From the sequence record SRR16203515_4098: a DNA stretch of 38,820 nucleotides, one strand, 5' to 3'. The position numbers and the translations under genes were made by a program. Shown here piece by piece: positions 3,692 to 23,250 of this stretch (positions are counted from its first letter, which is position 1; every line of letters begins with the position of its first letter). Under the pieces are notes generated by a model. That model was not told where the DNA came from, did no database searches, and saw nothing but the letters and a program-made list of their open reading frames with translations.

Positions 3692-4639
3692 TTATTTTAT
3701 GTGCACATGCTGATGGTGATGAGGGTGAACATGTAAATTATCGTTATCATCACGGCAGGGTTCGCCGGGTAGCTCAAACTCAATGGTGGTGTGAGCTAAA
3801 CCAAATTTTTCTAGTTTTTGCGCCACGCTTTTTTTCAGCTCTCTTAAGGTCTCATTATTGATACTACAATTTATTACTACATGGGCGGTGAGAACATGTT
3901 GCTCGCCATCTAAAGACCAAAAGTGTACGTGGTGTAACTCTTCTACGTGAGGTAGCGATAACAGTGTCTTTTTTATCGCTTGCATCTGACTTTCATCGGG
4001 GGAGCCTTGTAAAAACAACTTCATGGTTTGCACCACATACTTAAGTACATTGATTAAAATAAACAGCGTAAAGAGTATGGAGAGAATAGGATCTAGAATG
4101 GGCTAGTGCACGAAATGAAGTACAATCGCCACAATGAGAACGGCCCCCCATCCCATGGTATCTTCGATTAAATGCCAATTAAGCACTTTTTCATTCATGG
4201 AATGGCCGCCATGTAACTTGTATGCTGCAAACCCATTCACCAAAATACCCAATATTGCCATGCCGATCATACCCTCGGTAACTGGCATCTCAGGGGTCGC
4301 CAACCTTGGGATAGCCTCGCTCAATATCCATACTGAGCCCACCAGCAAGATAAGGCCATTTATCATGGCACCAAGCAAACTGAGGCGCTTGAACCCGTAA
4401 GAGTATTTATTGGTAGCGGCTTTATGACCTAGTTTACTCAAATACCAGGCAAGCCCTATGGATAACGAGTCACCAAGGTCGTGCACCGCATCGGCCATAA
4501 TTGCCACACTATTGGTAAGCCAACCGCCGATAAACTCAATAATAGTAAACACAAAATTGAGCCAAAATGCCCAGCCTATTCGTGTGCTGTCACCTTCATT
4601 GTTATTATCTATCCCGTGATCGTGAGAATGTTGATGCAT
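3692..4639 (-). pseudogene. Cation diffusion facilitator (CzcD/ZitB-like) interrupted by an in-frame TAG at 4103-4105
   Basis: ORFs 4103-4639 and 3692-4036 are in the same frame and joined by 22 sense codons (VH*PILDPILSILFTLFILINVLKYVVQTM). CDF motifs ADAVHDLGD, WHLIED and HHVHFWSLDG; His-rich termini. Confidence 0.88.
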
Positions 4640-4831
4640 AGATTGCTAAAGACAAACGAAGAATGGGTTTACTTTTCATCTTAGCTCGCCCCTTCCTATT
4701 TATCTATCCACCCGCGCTTTATATCGCCCCCCCCGTCCTGCTTATGAAAGAATTTACTAGCCAATACCTGAGTCTTAACGCTATCATTTATTGTCACCGA
4801 TGATATAGGCACAGTAGCTATTAACACCCTA

Positions 4832-12012: not shown

Positions 12013-12537
12013 TTATTTTTCACTTTTTGGCTGCAGATTATTTCTTACTTCCCTTGCATCAAAGCTTGTCGCACCTGTAGGTCGAGTACCTTTGCCCATT
12101 TCGATACTTAGAATGCTTTCAATTTCACTTTTTTGCGAGCCACCAACATAAATGCCAGTTTCAAACTGTGTAGAAGGATGATACGAAGTACGGCAACTGA
12201 TCACCCCACAGTCTGTCACTCGCGTATAGCGTTGGCTGAACCCCATTTGTGGGCTGGTTTCTACGGTTTCTTTATCTACCATGGTTTCTCTATCGGTCAC
12301 CACAAACCAGTCGTACCCTTCCAACAAGGTAAGCTCTGCGGCACGCAACATAGCGTAATCCATGGCTTTACCTTTATCGGTACCCTTAGCTTTAAAATGG
12401 ACACGGTATTGGGTGTCGCTTAGCTGACTTTCAGTGTAGCCGAAACCACCATTACTGGCTTCTCGGTAATCGGTCTGACTTGCGCATCCCATCATCACCA
12501 CAACTGCAATAAATAAACTAAACTTAGTTTTCATCAT
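12013..12537 (-). CDS. Lipoprotein (CC0125/CC1285-like), last gene of the ECF operon
   Basis: Lipobox MMGC; GYTESQL, YRVHF, LRAAELTLLEGYDWF; start overlaps the end of the anti-sigma gene. Confidence 0.75.
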   Translation of the reverse strand: MMKTKFSLFIAVVVMMGCASQTDYREASNGGFGYTESQLSDTQYRVHFKAKGTDKGKAMDYAMLRAAELTLLEGYDWFVVTDRETMVDKETVETSPQMGFSQRYTRVTDCGVISCRTSYHPSTQFETGIYVGGSQKSEIESILSIEMGKGTRPTGATSFDAREVRNNLQPKSEK

Positions 12538-13315
12538 TCTCTCCTTTCGCAACCTTTGTTGCTTGCCACTGCTGTTTCATTGCGTCCTCTTCTTCTGCTC
12601 TGTTAAGCGGTGCAGAGGACATCAACTTATCTAACTCATGCTCTAAGGCCTTATTGGCACTTGCAGTCTGATACTGTGCTTGTGAACCTGTGTTCAACAA
12701 GGTTTTCGTTGCCTGCAACTGCCAGTTTCCTTGTTGATTTTTACACGCAATCATTACATTTAGTTCATCTTTACCCACCACGTCCGCCTGCCGACAATAT
12801 TCGTCAGTATGACTTGCAAAAGATAACCTAGGTGTAACCTGTAATCCCGACTCCAGTATGCGTGTGTCGCCACTGTGTGCCGTATCGAGTACGGTTGAAA
12901 CGTTGGCCCAATAGCTATTGTCTGCTGTTTCTGGCGAGTTTAGCTGCATATAGCTAAGACCAGCTACTGCAGCGATACCTGCGGCTAACGACAGAGGGAG
13001 CGGCCATTTTTTGCTTGTCTTTGGTCGGCTACCGATAGCCCTAACATTCGATGCAGCCAGGCGTTGGTCGTTGTCACTGTCTGTCGCAGCTGCTGAGGCA
13101 GAAGGTGCGCCACTTAACATATTGACTATGCTCGCCGGTAACGGCTTTTGCGTCGCCTGCTCTGCAGCCTGCCTAACCACCATATCCACCTGTGCCAATT
13201 CGGCTAATCTATCGGCGACTGATGGGGTTTCAATAAGCGCGACTCGCACGGCTTCCATGTCCTCATCGCTTAATTCTGCATCTAAAAATGCAGATAGTTT
13301 TTCATCTGAAATCAT
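12524..13315 (-). CDS. Transmembrane anti-sigma factor
   Basis: N-terminal ISDEKLSAFLDAELS anti-sigma domain, one TM segment (WPLPLSLAAGIAAVAGL), periplasmic domain with YCRQ...ACK; start overlaps the sigma stop. Confidence 0.82.
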   Translation of the reverse strand: MISDEKLSAFLDAELSDEDMEAVRVALIETPSVADRLAELAQVDMVVRQAAEQATQKPLPASIVNMLSGAPSASAAATDSDNDQRLAASNVRAIGSRPKTSKKWPLPLSLAAGIAAVAGLSYMQLNSPETADNSYWANVSTVLDTAHSGDTRILESGLQVTPRLSFASHTDEYCRQADVVGKDELNVMIACKNQQGNWQLQATKTLLNTGSQAQYQTASANKALEHELDKLMSSAPLNRAEEEDAMKQQWQATKVAKGENDEN

Positions 13316-13803
13316 TATGACAATACCTCGTGGTGTGCTCGGAGCGCGCTGCTTAGTTTTGCTCTAGCCCGTGCTAGACGACTCATAATTGTACCTGTCG
13401 GGACCGACAGTATCTCAGAGGCATCTTGATAACTCATGCCTTGTACTGCTACCAAAGAAAGGGTTTCTCTTTGCTCACTTGGCAAGGTTCCCATGGCATT
13501 AGACACTTGTTTTAAGGTAATTTCACTGGTGATCGCCATGTCCATGTCCGACTCCTCTTGTGCCGACAGTTCTGGGGATTGCGCAGCTTGTAATCTTACT
13601 TTTTTCGCCCGATATTCATCAATCCACACGTTGCGGCACACCCGAAATGCCCACGCGATTAGCGTCGCCTCTTTTGGTGACGGCTTAGTGAGTAACTTTT
13701 CTAGGGTAGTTTGTAGTAAATCGTCTGCATCGGGCATATTGCCCGTAAGGGAATACGCAAACTTCCTCAGCGAGGGCACCAGTTCGGTAAGTTCTTCATT
13801 CAT
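13315..13803 (-). CDS. ECF RNA polymerase sigma factor
   Basis: Region 2 DADDLLQ...WAFRVCRNVWIDEYR; region 4 GMSYQDASEILSVPTGTIMSRLARAR. Confidence 0.93.
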   Translation of the reverse strand: MNEELTELVPSLRKFAYSLTGNMPDADDLLQTTLEKLLTKPSPKEATLIAWAFRVCRNVWIDEYRAKKVRLQAAQSPELSAQEESDMDMAITSEITLKQVSNAMGTLPSEQRETLSLVAVQGMSYQDASEILSVPTGTIMSRLARARAKLSSALRAHHEVLS

Positions 13804-13840: not shown

Positions 13841-13901
13841 TAACGTGTCAGCCAATATTTTATTCCCATCCAATTGGAATTTTTTGCCATGATGTTCGTT
13901 A
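13841..13901. promoter_or_regulatory. Back-to-back ECF-type promoters (sigma operon on -, S8 protease on +)
   Basis: Minus strand GGAATA (13866-13861)-N15-CGTTA (13845-13841); plus strand GGAATT (13876-13881)-N15-CGTTA (13897-13901). Confidence 0.7.
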
Positions 13902-14113: not shown

Positions 14114-15412
14114 ATGAACGCCAAACGACTGCTATCTTTTACGGCTATCTTGATGGCCTTTCATTGTCACGGGCAGTTAGCCTTACCATCACAGGTTGCA
14201 GCCCCTATCACTCCGGTTATAGACAAGCTACCGAAAGACTTAACCGATATTCGTCAAGGGCTTACAAAAAGCATAAGAGAAAAAAATGCAGCCCTTTCTA
14301 CGCTTAGCGAGCCCCTCACAGCACCGCTTTTCTCAATTCCTGAAGCTGTAACCATTAATGCGTCAGGGGGACAGGAATTACTCCGTGAAGTCACCACGCC
14401 TGAAGGCCATATTGCGGTGGAGAGAGAATGGGTCGTGCTAGGGCAACAAGAAGATATTCAAGCATTCACTCACCCCGACATTAGGATACTTGAGTCTCGC
14501 TTCCTACCCTCACTATCGCAATGGGTATTCACCCTCAAGGTTTCCGCGTCGCTAGATGAAGTGTCTAAAATTAGAGACACTCTTCCCCCTGCACTTAAAG
14601 CCCAAATTGCCCGCAATCATGTCTACCTTTCTCAATCGACATCTAATCCAGCGCCATCCTCTCCCTCTTTTGAAACTCGATTACGCTGTGAGAGTCCCAC
14701 CCGTATTGGCCTGATAGACACCCATGTATTTACCGAACATCTAGCCTTTGACCATATAAAGGTGCAGCAACAAGACTTTTTAAACGCTGATATGCCTATC
14801 AGTAAGGTTCATGGTACGGCGGTGGCCAGTTTATTAGCCGAAGAAATGACCGCGGGCAGTCAGTTGTACAATGCCAGCGTTTTTTATCAGCGTAATACGG
14901 TGAGTCAAGGCGCCACCCTTATGGCGCTAATTAATGGGCTGGAATATTTGGCAGCCCAACAAGTAGATACGATCAATATGAGCTTGGCGGGCCCGCACAA
15001 TCCGGTATTAGAAAAGGTGCTGATAGCGGTAGATGCACAGGGTATTCAGGTAGTTTCTGCGGCGGGCAATGAAGGGCCGGCTGCACCACCTACCTTTCCA
15101 GCCGCCTATCCCTCGACAATTGCGGTCACGGCGGTGGATAAAGAGAATTCAATTTATCGCTGGGCGAATCAGGGGGACTATATAGATTTCGCAGCACTAG
15201 GGGTGTCGGTAGAAACTGCCCACCCGACGCAAGAGCATTACAGAGAAACCGGTACATCAATGGCCGCACCGCTCATTAGTGCGCGTTATGCATGCGCCCT
15301 ACGCATAAGCAGAGATAGGGCACAAGCCATGACCCAACTAATCGAGTCTGCTGTTGATGTGGGAGAAACCGGCAAAGATACGGTGTTTGGTTTCGGCATT
15401 ATTCAAAAGTGA
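14114..15412 (+). CDS. Secreted S8 (subtilisin-like) serine peptidase
   Basis: Signal peptide; triad GLIDT, HGTAVASLL, GTSMAAP; INMSLAG, AAGNEG. Confidence 0.9.
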   Translation: MNAKRLLSFTAILMAFHCHGQLALPSQVAAPITPVIDKLPKDLTDIRQGLTKSIREKNAALSTLSEPLTAPLFSIPEAVTINASGGQELLREVTTPEGHIAVEREWVVLGQQEDIQAFTHPDIRILESRFLPSLSQWVFTLKVSASLDEVSKIRDTLPPALKAQIARNHVYLSQSTSNPAPSSPSFETRLRCESPTRIGLIDTHVFTEHLAFDHIKVQQQDFLNADMPISKVHGTAVASLLAEEMTAGSQLYNASVFYQRNTVSQGATLMALINGLEYLAAQQVDTINMSLAGPHNPVLEKVLIAVDAQGIQVVSAAGNEGPAAPPTFPAAYPSTIAVTAVDKENSIYRWANQGDYIDFAALGVSVETAHPTQEHYRETGTSMAAPLISARYACALRISRDRAQAMTQLIESAVDVGETGKDTVFGFGIIQK

Positions 15413-16323
15413 AGCTTGATCCCTAGCTCTGCCAAGGTTTCTTTGTAGTCGGCCCCTACTAGGGTGGAATCATAGTTATCGTATTGGGTACGCAGTGTCA
15501 GATCGGCAAACTCATACAAGGAATACTCAACACTGGCCTTAATACGTTGTCGGTCATCCTCGCGACCTGTGCCACCTTCAACCTCATTGGCGTATTGACG
15601 TTGTTCATATTCATAGGCTAGGGTTACTTCACTGGCCTTAGCAAACAGCGTAAAGGGCAGTGCATAAGACACATCAAGCTTTTTCCCGGCATAATCAAAA
15701 CTTGCATCAACTGCATCTTCATCATGATAGGTGGCCCCCACTTTCAAAAATGCCCCCTGCTTGAAAAACCAAAACACATCGCCTCGTAATGCCTCGGCAT
15801 CACTATTACGCGCTGTTGCCGTGGGCAATTCTTTCTCAATGCTATCAGCACTTAACCGCCAATATGCACGTTCTAAAAAGCCATTGGCCGCAGAAATACC
15901 CGTTTGTTTGTAGGTGAGATAACGCTGACTGTCTAGATCGGCGTCAGCATGGTAATGGTGCATGCCTACTTTTGCCCACGGACTTTGATAGCTAATTTCC
16001 CCAGAATAAGTCGCCACCGCTAAATTAAAATCAGACTGCTCATGATAGTGGGTCCCGGTGTACTGCGCCGACGCAGTGAATGACCAACGCTGAGTAGGCG
16101 TAATGTTGGCTTTTAGCATCGCATTGGTATGGGTAGCGGTATCTGACGTATCGGTATTGGTATCAAGTTCACTCACACTCACATTACTATCATACCCGTA
16201 GCCTACGTAGGCTTTACCGCTTATGTCATACCAACTTTCATCATTTGCATTACCTTCTGCCATGGCTGATGACACACTCATGGCTAATAAACTCATTGCG
16301 GATAATTTGTGAAACTTTTTCAT
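15403..16323 (-). CDS. Outer-membrane beta-barrel protein (possibly DUF560/Slam-barrel-like)
   Basis: Signal peptide; GYGYDSNV start of barrel; alternating aromatic strands; C-terminal LGIKLHF. Confidence 0.75.
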   Translation of the reverse strand: MKKFHKLSAMSLLAMSVSSAMAEGNANDESWYDISGKAYVGYGYDSNVSVSELDTNTDTSDTATHTNAMLKANITPTQRWSFTASAQYTGTHYHEQSDFNLAVATYSGEISYQSPWAKVGMHHYHADADLDSQRYLTYKQTGISAANGFLERAYWRLSADSIEKELPTATARNSDAEALRGDVFWFFKQGAFLKVGATYHDEDAVDASFDYAGKKLDVSYALPFTLFAKASEVTLAYEYEQRQYANEVEGGTGREDDRQRIKASVEYSLYEFADLTLRTQYDNYDSTLVGADYKETLAELGIKLHF

Positions 16324-16389: not shown

Positions 16390-16432
16390 AAAAAGAAGTG
16401 GCAGTCGCTCGCAAAACTGCAACGACTGCCAC
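16390..16432 (-). terminator. Intra-operon terminator-like hairpin between the repeat-protein gene and the barrel gene
   Basis: GTGGCAGTCG (16398-16407) / CGACTGCCAC (16423-16432), followed on the minus strand by TTCTTTTT. Confidence 0.65.
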
Positions 16433-16452: not shown

Positions 16453-17400
16453 CTACTGACCGACGACACTGCTGATGTTGCTGGTAATACTTTCTTCTAC
16501 CGAGCCAGCCACTGTGTCGCTTACCGCGGTGGTAACCGTGCTATCAATGGCTGAAGTTAATGCACCTTGTACACTTGAGGTCACCACATCATCGACAACC
16601 GCAGTGACACTGCCTTCTACTGCTGAATTTACGGTTGTGGCTACCGTATTAGTGACGGCACCTTCAACTGCAGAGTCAACCGTAGAACTCACTGTTGTGG
16701 CGAGGGTATTGTTTACAGCACTTTCTGCTTCAGCAGCAGAATTACTCGCAAAGGCACCTTCCAAGGTATTGTCTAGCGTGCCTGTTGCGGCGCCCTCTAG
16801 TGTACCCGTCGCTGAGCCGTCTAACGTGGTGGTTACCGCCGAGGTATCTATGCCGTTATTCGTTTCCTCTGCTGCTTCTTCAGACGTGGTCGTTAAGCCA
16901 CCTAATAGGTTGGTATTAACAGCGCCTTGTAAGCTCGAGGTTACGCCCGACTGTAAGTTTGTCACAGCCGAGGTATTGGCCAATGAAGTAGTGGTGTCTA
17001 CCGCCGTGGCCAACGATGAGTTTGCATTTACCACAGTGTTAGCAAGTAGCGTTGAGGTTTGCTCTGCACTTTCATCAGCTTGTGCTTGCGTCTCGCCTTC
17101 AGCTTCATCCGCCTCGGCGGTTACACTGCCGCTATCAGCATTCGCTTGTGTTTGTGTATTAGATTCAGTATCCGTACTTGCTTGCGTTTCAGTACCCTCA
17201 TTAGCATTGGCCTCTGCCTGTACTGAACCTTGTGCGGCAAGGTTACTTTGAGCTGACATATCAGCGTTGTTGTTACTTGAAGTACTTATCTGAGTGGAAG
17301 ATTGCGACGATGCATCTACGCTAGCAGATAATTCTTGTGCATGAAGGCCCTGAGCAGAAACACCAAGTGCCATAATTATTGCTGTAGTTAACTTATTCAT
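16453..17400 (-). CDS. Secreted acidic low-complexity (S/T/A/V/E/D/N/Q) repeat protein
   Basis: CAGGAG RBS; signal peptide MNKLTTAIIMALGVSAQGLHA; mature part lacks K, R, P, C, W, Y; 4-residue hydrophobic periodicity. Confidence 0.8.
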   Translation of the reverse strand: MNKLTTAIIMALGVSAQGLHAQELSASVDASSQSSTQISTSSNNNADMSAQSNLAAQGSVQAEANANEGTETQASTDTESNTQTQANADSGSVTAEADEAEGETQAQADESAEQTSTLLANTVVNANSSLATAVDTTTSLANTSAVTNLQSGVTSSLQGAVNTNLLGGLTTTSEEAAEETNNGIDTSAVTTTLDGSATGTLEGAATGTLDNTLEGAFASNSAAEAESAVNNTLATTVSSTVDSAVEGAVTNTVATTVNSAVEGSVTAVVDDVVTSSVQGALTSAIDSTVTTAVSDTVAGSVEESITSNISSVVGQ

Positions 17401-17436
17401 CCGTTAATCTCCTGTTTTTCATAATGGACACTGAGA

Positions 17437-17463
17437 TAACGGATGGGTGGGTGAGTTTATTCC
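17437..17463 (-). promoter_or_regulatory. ECF-type promoter upstream of the repeat-protein gene
   Basis: GGAATA (17463-17458)-N16-CGTTA (17441-17437), the same motif as at 13841-13901. Confidence 0.68.
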
Positions 17464-17484: not shown

Positions 17485-17515
17485 AAAAACAAAAACGCCG
17501 GATAAAATCCGGCGT
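17485..17515 (-). terminator. Intrinsic terminator downstream of the 17567-18244 gene
   Basis: ACGCCGGAT-AAA-ATCCGGCGT (17495-17515), followed by a T-tract on the minus strand. Confidence 0.7.
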
Positions 17516-21758: not shown

Positions 21759-23051
21759 TTAGTGCAGCTTTAATTTTGGGCTAATGGCGTGGCTAAGCTT
21801 TTTAATTAACAACTTGAGCGTGCCTTTCAGCTTTCCGTGTACCGCAAACTGATGCATATTATAAAGCGACACATACACAAGTTTAGCCAGTCGCCCTTCC
21901 ACGAACATACTGCTATTAGATAATGAGCCCATCAGGCTGCCTACGGTACTGTATTTACTTAAGTGTACTAACGAGCCATAGTCTTTATAGCTATAGTCTT
22001 TGAGGCTTTTGTTGGCAAAAATAGCACGCAGGTTATAGGCCACGGTATCAGCCATTTGGTGAGCCGATTGCGCCCGCGGCGGCACCCATTTCCCATCACT
22101 TTGTTGAAATCCACAACAATCCCCTAATACCCAAATATTACTCTGAGTACGACTACGAAGGTGCTTATCAACCAAAATTTGGTTCGCCCGATTGGTTTCA
22201 AATAAGTCCATTTCGGTAATAAAGTCTGGCGCTTTAACCCCTGCTGCCCACACCATAAGATCGGCATCAATACGCCCACCGTCTTTAGTGATAAGTCCGT
22301 TTGCGTCGGCTTCTGCCACCATGGTTTGTTCTTTAATATCCACGCCGAGTTTATGTAATGCTTTACGCGCCGAATTAGCGATGCGCTCAGGTAACGCAGG
22401 TAAAATACGCTGCCCAGCTTCCACTATGGTTATTTTCAACCGCGAGGCAGACATATCCGGCATACCATAAGCTTTCGATAGATTAGCCACATGGTGCAAT
22501 TGTGCCGCCAGTTCGGTGCCGGTTGCGCCCGCACCTACAATGGCCACCTTAATGAAACCATCACAGGTTTCTTGTTGGTTAATTCTGATCAGTTGGTTGA
22601 GCAAAGCGCGATGAAAACGTTCAGCTTGCATTAGCGAGTCGAGAAAATAGCAATGCTGACTGACACCCGGGGTACCAAAATCATTGCTGACGCTACCAAT
22701 AGCAAGTACCAACTCGTCGTATTGTACTTCCCGGCGAGGTAATACTTCGGTGCCTTCCTCATCAAAAAGGGGCGCTAGCGTAATGGTTTTATCTTGTGCG
22801 TTAATGGCACACATTTCGCCTAACTGGAAACGGTAGTGATGGGCAGCAGCATGTATAGCGTAGTCAACGCCATCTGAGTGCTTATCGATGATACCGGCCG
22901 CCACTTCATGTAATAGCGGCTTCCAGATATGGGTTCGACTTCGGTCGACTAGGGTTATATCGGCTTGCTTTTTTCTCCCGAGGGTGCGGCTTAAACGACT
23001 CGCCAGCTCAAGGCCTCCTGCGCCGCCACCAACAATTACTATTTTTTGCAT
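21759..23051 (-). CDS. ndh: Type II NADH dehydrogenase
   Basis: IVIVGGGAGGLE, HIWKPLLHEVAAG, AIVGAGATGTELAA, WAAG, VPPRAQSAHQ. Alternative GTG start at 23060. Confidence 0.93.
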   Translation of the reverse strand: MQKIVIVGGGAGGLELASRLSRTLGRKKQADITLVDRSRTHIWKPLLHEVAAGIIDKHSDGVDYAIHAAAHHYRFQLGEMCAINAQDKTITLAPLFDEEGTEVLPRREVQYDELVLAIGSVSNDFGTPGVSQHCYFLDSLMQAERFHRALLNQLIRINQQETCDGFIKVAIVGAGATGTELAAQLHHVANLSKAYGMPDMSASRLKITIVEAGQRILPALPERIANSARKALHKLGVDIKEQTMVAEADANGLITKDGGRIDADLMVWAAGVKAPDFITEMDLFETNRANQILVDKHLRSRTQSNIWVLGDCCGFQQSDGKWVPPRAQSAHQMADTVAYNLRAIFANKSLKDYSYKDYGSLVHLSKYSTVGSLMGSLSNSSMFVEGRLAKLVYVSLYNMHQFAVHGKLKGTLKLLIKKLSHAISPKLKLH

Positions 23052-23250
23052 GGGTTTCACCTATTAACAATCATTCCACGTATCAACGCTTAAAAAAACG
23101 ACCATACGTGGGGTGACTGCGCCCATGCGTTACAAAAATAGTGTTAGAACATAGTATAAGGGTGATGTATATAGTGCCGTAGAGTACGCCTGAAACCCTC
23201 TTATCTCAAGGGCGTCAGGCTTATATTCAATATAATTATGCTATAGCTTA

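Follow-up and report, generated by a model that had tools for sequence, protein, structure and literature searches.

An acidic tetrad-repeat protein with a Sec-type signal peptide, encoded beside a predicted outer-membrane barrel, a subtilase and a putative ECF26-type sigma factor in Alteromonas

In the 38,820-nucleotide (nt) stretch of sequence record SRR16203515_4098 analysed here (the window), the minus strand encodes, at 16453..17400, an acidic protein of 315 amino acids (aa) that carries a signal peptide and ends in 22 consecutive four-residue repeats, each headed by V, I or L. The four-residue periodicity of this acidic tetrad-repeat protein, REP, is real and exceeds chance. Comparison of loci identifies REP as a real, selected and conserved gene family with a C-terminal V/I tetrad array, co-inherited, as its gene neighbourhoods indicate, with a 14-stranded outer-membrane (OM) barrel, an S8 subtilase, a sigma factor, a putative anti-sigma factor and a lipoprotein. 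The explanation we favour, at a probability of roughly 0.4, is that REP is a Sec-exported polyanionic envelope protein and the main output of a module run by an extracytoplasmic function (ECF) sigma factor of the ECF26 type. REP belongs to no described family that could be found here and is new on these searches.

The main array begins at residue 229 (first base 16716) and extends to the C-terminus (residues 229-315; 16456..16716, minus strand), reading VNNT LATT VSST VDSA VEGA VTNT VATT VNSA VEGS VTAV VDDV and then VTSS VQGA LTSA IDST VTTA VSDT VAGS VEES ITSN ISSV VGQ. The heads of the first 21 of the 22 tetrads are V (16), I (3) and L (2), all in register. An earlier block at residues 193-217 (16750..16824, minus strand), LDGS ATGT LEGA ATGT LDNT LEGA F, keeps the register of the main array, and residues 101-179 are partly period-4, with hydrophobic residues at 149, 153, 157, 161, 165 and 169. 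A sequence-only reading of this DNA had described the 22 consecutive hydrophobic-headed tetrads and the earlier block, and all of its letters were confirmed. No run of 22 arose when the mature chain was shuffled 20000 times, nor when its last 110 residues alone were shuffled as often; the longest shuffled run was 9. The hydrophobic moment of residues 229-313 has a sharp peak of 0.351 at 90 degrees per residue, against 0.082 at 100 and 0.264 at 180 degrees. Throughout the DNA fetched for this work, tetrad runs of at least 12 occur in 27 of 970 distinct open reading frames (ORFs) of at least 150 aa, and 25 of the 27 are members of the REP family.

At the DNA level, Tandem Repeats Finder reported a single repeat, of 24 nt in 2.4 copies at 16771-16827, which lies beneath the earlier block, and the position-1 codons of the array are mixed (GTA 7, GTC 4, GTG 3, GTT 3, and others). 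As the main array is not tandemly repeated in its DNA and its position-1 codons vary, the pattern is held at the protein level. Recent slippage was considered as the origin of the array and rejected on the Tandem Repeats Finder result.

The REP gene is preceded by a Shine-Dalgarno sequence, AGGAG (17409..17413, minus strand), 8 nt before the ATG and conserved in Alteromonas loci. The product starts with a Sec-type signal peptide, MNKLTTAIIMALGVSAQGLHA (residues 1-21; 17338..17400, minus strand), in which MNK and a hydrophobic core precede a cut between LHA and QE; it was read from the sequence and is kept in alignment A1. Its cleavage site was placed by the -3/-1 rule and by alignment with homologues that read FAQ before the cut and E after it, no predictor being used. 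This conserved signal peptide supports the earlier claim of a secreted protein, and it contains the only K and the only H of REP. Translation likewise confirmed each of the residues reported as missing from the mature chain, and added one: K, R, H, P, C, W and Y are all absent, F and M occur once each, and 15 D and 23 E make up 38 acidic residues. The net charge of REP is about -38. That the chain has no tryptic sites holds, by sequence, for the REP of the window; as a family rule it fails, since distant members have up to 22 K+R. Because the window REP has no such site, trypsin-based proteomics would miss it even if it were abundant on marine heterotrophs.

Residues 22-100 (17101..17337, minus strand) form an acidic segment rich in Q, A, S, T, N, E and D, with 12 D+E in 78 residues, which is predicted to be disordered (pLDDT, the predicted local distance difference test score of AlphaFold2, 30-45). 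A candidate processing or docking motif, conserved by eye, lies at the end of this segment, at residues 115-121 (about 17038-17058). In Alteromonas it reads S/T-x-L-L-A-N; its form in distant members is S-L-G-L-D/T or A-G-L-D-V.

The window carries an Ndh gene (21759-23060) that shares 93% identity with its Alteromonas profundi counterpart and 79-88% with those of many other Alteromonas. In 55 loci anchored on Ndh, REP homologues were sought by tblastn without composition correction, and one was found, with a SurA_N-like gene on one side and an OM-barrel gene on the other, in 13 (L001, L002, L003, L004, L006, L007, L009, L010, L019, L021, L025, L027 and L028). These syntenic homologues are of 219-359 aa, all open with a similar signal peptide, and have 0-3 K+R each past that peptide (none in 6 of the 13). 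Their unbroken tetrad runs number 23, 24, 24, 27, 25, 21, 30, 30, 22, 21, 17, 11 and 10 and extend to the final residues (...ISGALGL, ...ISGMIGQ, ...ITSLLTQ), and gaps within the array in alignment A1 are of 4, 8 or 12 residues, i.e., multiples of four. The sequence-only reading had named a periodicity that is not conserved in homologues as a result that would speak against it; the pattern is kept in all 13 syntenic Alteromonas homologues and in distant relatives. Across 293 tetrads of 14 Alteromonas proteins, position 1 is V (85%), I (12%) or L (3%), position 2 is most often E (22%), A (19%), T (16%) or S (16%), position 3 S (32%), G (23%) or N (20%), and position 4 T (48%), S (21%) or A (17%). 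The A. profundi locus (L001:12364-13332, plus strand) has a gene for a LysR-type regulator between the SurA_N-like gene and REP, which is absent from the window.

More distant members of the family were found through the barrel. In a sample of 401 genomes from the order of genome G001, the barrel as query matched 22, and the gene directly upstream of the barrel on the same strand is REP-like in 20 of the 22 loci (the exceptions being L079 and L084). The REP-like genes of these 20 loci encode a signal peptide, an acidic low-complexity body and a C-terminal run of 6-23 tetrads. In 150 tetrads from 15 distant members, position 1 is V (64%), I (33%) or L (3%), while N (21%), K (17%) and D (15%) lead at position 2 and D (23%), A (21%), S (18%) and E (9%) at position 3. 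Distant members have tetrads rich in E, K, Q and D, many terminate in LPLDR or LPIDR, and the K+R count reaches 22 in the member at L074. It is the Alteromonas clade, rather than the family, that is marked by the absence of K and R. In a class-level sample of 400 genomes, a profile of the barrel (A2) matched nine at E ≤ 1e-8, four of them strongly; of two further class-level loci that were read, the first encodes upstream a 165-aa acidic protein that lacks tetrads, and the second has no such gene. A single-query barrel search of genome contigs gave no confirmed relative.

Searches against described families were negative. Pfam and NCBIfam scans of REP gave no family at E ≤ 0.01, and nine homologues gave nothing at E ≤ 0.1 save three sub-threshold, unrelated matches (E 0.02-0.03). 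A PDB sequence search with REP returned nothing, and one with profile A1 only low-complexity or chance rows. Among 8000 candidates, a single-protein homologue search with REP found none at E ≤ 0.001, low complexity swamping its word filter, and a search with profile A1 found three fragments only, of 83-189 aa, among them one that bears the name 'hypothetical protein'. The nearest ESM Atlas clusters to whole REP are unnamed hypothetical proteins of Pseudomonadota (0.94, 0.92 and 0.90), with a recognition value of 1369, below the 2300 mark; the C-terminal part had no usable match among named clusters. An exhaustive phmmer search with REP of 1.8 billion representatives gave 27 matches at E ≤ 0.001. 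Of the 13 that were fetched, two (P0002 and P0005) are fragments of true homologues and the others match through tetrad arrays of their own. No PEP-CTERM, LPXTG or GlyGly-CTERM sorting signal is visible at the C-terminus of REP or of distant members, and open-access full text and abstracts yielded no description of such a tetrad-repeat protein.

Directly downstream of REP lies the partner OM protein (15403..16323, minus strand; 306 aa), which AlphaFold2 models as a 14-stranded beta-barrel (pLDDT 89.6; predicted template-modelling score, pTM, 0.80). The best Foldseek match of this model is CymA (E 1.7e-10, template-modelling (TM) score 0.57), and OmpG matches with TM scores of 0.52-0.64. In sequence, the one Pfam match is a borderline one, to BBP2_2 (PF10082; 24.3 bits, cut-off 23.7), and takes in residues 234-305 of the protein and positions 311-377 of the 378-position model; a PDB sequence search found no relative of the barrel. 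Convergent to the barrel gene is the gene for the S8 subtilase (14114..15412, plus strand; 432 aa), which has a signal peptide, an unassigned N-terminal part of about 180 aa and a subtilisin-like catalytic domain at 198-428 with visible D, H and S motifs (Peptidase_S8, E 6e-25); PADLOC gave no defence-system match apart from generic subtilase models for this protein. The ECF sigma factor gene (13315..13803, minus strand), whose best NCBIfam match is the generic PRK12511, is divergent from the subtilase gene. It is followed by a 263-aa anti-sigma candidate (12524..13315, minus strand), whose ORF overlaps the sigma stop and which has one hydrophobic segment by eye and no His/Cys motif within its N-terminal 50 residues, and by a CC0125/CC1285-family lipoprotein gene (12013..12552, minus strand; NF047637, E 4e-47), the last of the sigma operon.

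This arrangement is conserved. In 19.5-kb loci around 17 barrels, homologues of the S8 peptidase, the ECF sigma factor and the anti-sigma candidate are present in 16 (all except L090), and the lipoprotein in 14. L008 lacks REP, the barrel, the S8 peptidase, the sigma factor and the 5' portion of the anti-sigma gene all at once, and retains the 3' portion of that gene and the lipoprotein. Scars of module deletion can be seen at L008:14178-15209 and L016:15265-15828, where the anti-sigma 3' part and/or the lipoprotein are left and REP, the barrel, the S8 peptidase and the sigma factor are gone.

In one genome of the order (L097:10413-12317, minus strand) the S8 peptidase of the module is a 634-aa protein with about 27 in-register V-E-D-D tetrads between the signal peptide and the catalytic domain. 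The DNA of these tetrads is a tandem repeat with a 24-nt unit (13.6 copies, 90% matches), and the place of REP upstream of the barrel is taken in that genome by a gene for an 849-aa acidic lipoprotein-like protein. The fusion of an acidic V-every-fourth array to a module protease is a hint that tetrad arrays and the subtilase may be functionally connected.

REP and the sigma factor gene have a promoter motif in common. An ECF26-type promoter of the form GGAATAAA-N-CGTT precedes REP at 17438..17463 (minus strand), about 62 nt upstream of the ATG, with the fuller form GGAATAAA-N16/17-CGTTA, and a second motif of the same pattern precedes the sigma gene (13842..13866, minus strand). A scan of the window found these two matches only, where 0.03 were expected, and none of 100 shuffles had two. 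The 150 nt upstream of REP contain the motif in all 14 Alteromonas loci, 13 times at -62/-63 and once at -74 from the ATG; in this region the spacer is variable, and the stretch downstream of the motif and the AGGAG are strongly conserved. Among distant loci the initial regular expression matched 9 of 18, and the remaining nine read, by eye, [ATC]GAATAA...CGTCA at the same distance. With a relaxed pattern, GAATA[AT]N-N13-17-CGT[TC]A, scanned over 2.5 kb around each module, a match stands before REP in the window and in 15 of 17 loci, and before the sigma gene in the window and in 8 of 16; the one other match around the modules lies inside the sigma gene of L093.

The supplement of Casas-Pastor et al. 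(PMC7826278) gives the ECF26 motif as GGAATAAA at -35 and GTT at -10, and the same work places an anti-sigma gene at +1 and, in subgroups s10, s4, s27 and s14, a subtilase at -1. Mapped ECF26 promoters of Sinorhizobium meliloti contain GGAATA (Lang et al. 2018, PMC6180224). The window has both the target and auto-promoter motif and a subtilase at -1, divergent from the sigma gene; the ECF26-type assignment is one by promoter motif and gene context. Since REP and the sigma gene share this motif, we read REP as a likely direct target of the neighbouring ECF26-type sigma factor, which, from the second copy of the motif, may also be autoregulated.

A strong terminator-like hairpin ends the upstream SurA_N-like gene (17495..17515, minus strand), and because it closes that gene, REP should have its own transcription start. 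Between REP and the barrel gene, a hairpin core followed by a T-run (16401..16420, minus strand; -25.4 kcal/mol) is a possible attenuator. Hairpins occur between the two genes in some homologous loci, where their sequence is not conserved and the T-run is mostly absent; the intervening hairpin might allow REP to be made in excess of the barrel. The 5' leader of REP, from the -10 element to the ATG (17401-17437, and the same place in L002-L010 and L025), shows stronger conservation than the coding region. Most Alteromonas loci have there an additional, upstream ATG in frame with REP (MKNGDNR-MKKLNT...); its counterpart in the window is not in frame and starts an ORF of 9 codons that overlaps the REP start.

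For structural insight, REP was modelled with AlphaFold2 from alignment A1 (16 rows). The model has a mean pLDDT of 56 and a pTM of 0.28, with residues 12-96 below 50, and contains two long helices: residues 101-179 (16864..17100, minus strand; pLDDT about 60-72) and residues 209-314 (about 70-75), the second of which holds the main array. Foldseek found no match to the model at E ≤ 0.001, and VIA-align gave at best Z 8.2 (cohesin elbow, YscO), to generic antiparallel helical hairpins that are the tool's background for long helices. A three-copy complex prediction of residues 205-315 scored 0.00, with an uncertain chain fold and the alignment not used. Acidic tetrads are adjacent less often than expected (21 pairs vs 31.8; 13 of 5000 shuffles as low, a figure to be read with the related sequences not being independent), as also in a five-sequence subset (4 vs 8.6; 88 of 5000 shuffles as low). 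Their autocorrelation across tetrads is negative at lag 1 only, an avoidance that fits i/i+4 proximity on a helix, and lags of 2-8 tetrads show no higher-order period of the kind expected from a solenoid with coils of fixed length. The richness in E, K, Q and D of the tetrads of distant members also speaks for a helix. The tetrad array is probably helical. On a straight alpha-helix, a ridge of residues i, i+4 and i+8 turns about 40 degrees per tetrad, so that a full turn takes 9 tetrads (about 54 Å). To follow such a ridge, a closed rope of helices would have to supercoil implausibly tightly, whereas open-ended lateral contacts to several neighbours are possible on geometric grounds. We also considered the tetrad helix as a plug within the barrel and rejected this, as 88-120 residues far exceed the membrane length.

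Taken together, these data can be assembled into the following scheme, which is the reading given a probability of roughly 0.4. The anti-sigma factor would release the sigma factor, and REP would be transcribed, probably above the level of the barrel given the hairpin between them. REP would cross the inner membrane unfolded, then be delivered to the barrel or threaded through it, and become exposed at the cell surface, its N-terminal half remaining a disordered anionic brush. The tetrad domain would fold as a long helix around which a single V/I ridge (i, i+4) winds by about 40 degrees with each tetrad. A ridge of this kind would not close a canonical coiled coil and would favour lateral, open-ended ridge-into-groove contacts among many helices, forming a hydrated anionic coat or fibre that the subtilase would trim or turn over. 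Three of these steps may be named separately: export through, or docking to, the barrel, as the gene order suggests; self-association into a coat or fibre; and processing by the subtilase, to which its place in the module points. A bolder version, in which an all-stutter helix of period 4.0 builds a new kind of open-ended helical fibre or gel, held together by its spiralling V/I ridge, and this assembly is the ECF26 envelope-stress effector, a polyanionic, protease-resistant coat put out on a signal via the 14-stranded barrel, is a speculation we consider doubtful.

Several observations weigh against this scheme. The confidence of the AlphaFold2 helices is moderate, from a shallow alignment and with the global scores given above. 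Helix propensity over the array is low (mean P-alpha 0.98 vs P-beta 1.09), and a position 1 that is almost purely beta-branched, together with the G (23%) and N (20%) content of position 3 in Alteromonas, would suit a beta structure too. Export through the barrel is read from gene order, and the barrel could be an ordinary porin; lateral assembly is a matter of geometric reasoning. The subtilase gene has no ECF26-type motif by the patterns applied. Lastly, 13 of the 26 Alteromonas loci that retain the flanking ArfB and SurA_N genes have no REP module, with genes for a siderophore-interacting protein and a major facilitator superfamily (MFS) protein adjoining; since the flanks are kept without REP, the module is an accessory cassette.

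The main rival, less probable in our view, takes REP to be a periplasmic disordered polyanion, induced by the ECF factor and staying inside the outer membrane, where it would act as a sponge for cations or cationic peptides or as a decoy or feedback substrate in the circuit of subtilase and anti-sigma factor, and the barrel to be a separate porin for small solutes or peptides. It would account readily for the predicted disorder of the first 100 residues and the mean pLDDT of 56, for a net charge of about -38 with no basic residue, for the low helix propensity of the array and for the resemblance of the 14-stranded barrel to solute channels, and it sits well with the fact that the regulon of the S. 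meliloti ECF26 factor RpoE6 is reported without an assigned function (PMC6180224). Yet a disordered polyanion has no need of a strict V/I period of four, which is nevertheless kept at the C-terminus over deep divergence, and REP and the barrel adjoin each other in the same orientation in 20 of 22 loci. Further down in likelihood stands a beta-solenoid or amyloid-like fibre subunit, exported by the barrel and processed by the protease in the manner of curli or Fap. The combination of a repeat protein with a barrel and a protease resembles that of Fap, the array has a P-beta above its P-alpha, and a position 1 that is 97% V/I would be compatible with such a fold, as would T/S/A at position 4 and S/G/N at position 3 in Alteromonas. 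Moreover, AlphaFold2 may over-predict helices from shallow alignments. The model is nonetheless a helix rather than a solenoid, no coil-length period appears at 2-8 tetrads, acidic residues avoid each other at i/i+4 and not at longer lags, and no curlin or Fap family of Pfam matches. In distant members position 3 is D in 23% and E in 9% of tetrads and position 2 is K in 17% and D in 15%, residues that would be hard to bury. This part of the sequence-only reading, a beta-solenoid or amyloid-like fibre, gained no positive support, with no higher-order period and with a position 3 that is often D or E in distant members.

The right-handed coiled coil proposed in the same reading fared worse. Long helices are predicted, and a beta-branched core position is compatible with coiled-coil trimers; these points would agree with a canonical alpha-helical coiled coil of two to four chains, with a right-handed supercoil, of the hendecad or pentadecad kind. 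REP, however, has a single hydrophobic position per repeat, and its repeats, 22 here and as many as 30 in homologues, keep a period of exactly 4.0, whereas coiled-coil periodicities are estimated to lie between about 3.33 and about 3.9 residues per turn, and the pentadecad, at 15/4 = 3.75, is already as strongly right-handed as heptads are left-handed (Hartmann et al. 2016, PMC4786415). Because 4.0 falls outside this range, we consider the canonical form very improbable. Almost no weight is due to the notion that REP is not a gene, being a product of biased composition or the complement of a true gene on the opposite strand. Low complexity does leave both strands open, but the signal peptide, Shine-Dalgarno sequence and promoter on the minus strand are conserved in 14 of 14 loci, and the reading frame is kept where the sequences vary, indels being of 4 codons or multiples of 4. 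The 258-aa ORF opposite REP (16475-17251, plus strand) looks like a shadow of composition bias, unsupported as a gene.

REP is of interest on two counts. A conserved hydrophobic residue at exactly every fourth position, repeated up to 30 times, falls beyond the known coiled-coil periodicities. In addition, ECF26 subgroups with a subtilase are widespread, and the available parts of the ECF26 literature assign them no function (PMC7826278, PMC6180224); the shared promoter now points to the likely output genes of such a module, a repeat protein and a barrel, and offers a handle for experiments. Elsewhere in the window, a CDF-type (cation diffusion facilitator) cation-efflux gene (3692-4645, minus strand; Cation_efflux and ZT_dimer) is interrupted at 4100-4102 by a TAG codon in frame and is likely a pseudogene or a sequencing error.

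Among known systems, the closest in layout are ECF26 loci with a divergent subtilase, namely those of subgroups s4, s10, s14 and s27 and S. meliloti RpoE6-EcfR6 with SMa0142 and SMa0146/SMa0148. As in these, a promoter of the shared type precedes the sigma gene, an anti-sigma gene (here a candidate) lies directly downstream of it and an S8-type protease gene is divergent. RpoE6 is encoded divergently from the serine protease SMa0142, its top targets are SMa0142 and neighbouring hypothetical proteins, and no functional role was reported for it (PMC6180224); likewise, REP and the barrel adjoin the sigma module in the window. The differences are that ECF26 is mainly a group of Alpha- and Betaproteobacteria (PMC7826278), whereas the REP locus is gammaproteobacterial (Alteromonas), and that the anti-sigma candidate here shows no H/C zinc motif. 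The pairing of ECF26 with a subtilase is thus already noted in the ECF classification, and the available portions of both descriptions (PMC7826278, PMC6180224) make no mention of a tetrad-repeat protein or a 14-stranded barrel.

The partner barrel resembles the wide, monomeric channels CymA and OmpG in having 14 strands in about 280-300 residues (Foldseek E 1.7e-10 to 9e-9, TM score 0.52-0.64), at a sequence identity of 8-11% and with no sequence match to any PDB chain. A repeat protein beside an OM barrel and a protease also recalls curli (CsgA with CsgG) and Fap (FapB/C, with the FapF barrel and the FapD protease). REP shares with their subunits a Sec-type export signal, the lack of Cys and a polar, repeat-rich chain. 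It differs in having no homology to them and no membership of the curlin or Fap families, a repeat unit of 4 residues where theirs are roughly 20-40, no solenoid-coil repeats tens of residues long, and a helical prediction; and the REP module differs from Fap in that its barrel is modelled as a CymA/OmpG-like monomer with 14 strands, its protease is a serine peptidase of family S8 rather than a C39 cysteine peptidase, and it appears to be under ECF control.

With the hendecad (11/3) and pentadecad (15/4) coiled coils of tetrabrachion and the stalks of trimeric autotransporters, REP has in common long helices (predicted, in the case of REP), four-residue 'stutters' and a periodicity above 3.63, so that any supercoil would be right-handed. 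It stands apart in consisting of stutters only, with a period beyond about 3.9, in having one core position where those have an a/d/e/h-type pattern, and in the unspecific outcome of its fold searches (Foldseek none at E ≤ 0.001, VIA-align Z ≤ 8.2).

The nearest likeness to the array itself comes from unrelated DUF6745 proteins with (x-x-A-V)n repeats. By eye, 8 of the 13 phmmer matches fetched have this architecture (P0001, P0003, P0004, P0006, P0008, P0010, P0014 and P0017), and Pfam confirmed DUF6745 in all four that were scanned (P0001, P0003, P0004 and P0006); P0012 has an (x-x-T-V)n array and no signal peptide. A literature search on DUF6745 in open-access full text found nothing, and we know of no structure for V-every-fourth arrays such as these. 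DUF6745 proteins differ from REP in having no signal peptide, many R and H, and a long array set between globular N- and C-terminal domains, and the match is of repeat to repeat rather than one of full-length homology. Like REP, however, they keep a strict V at every fourth position with small or polar residues elsewhere, and one solved array would therefore settle the fold of the code that these unrelated proteins share.

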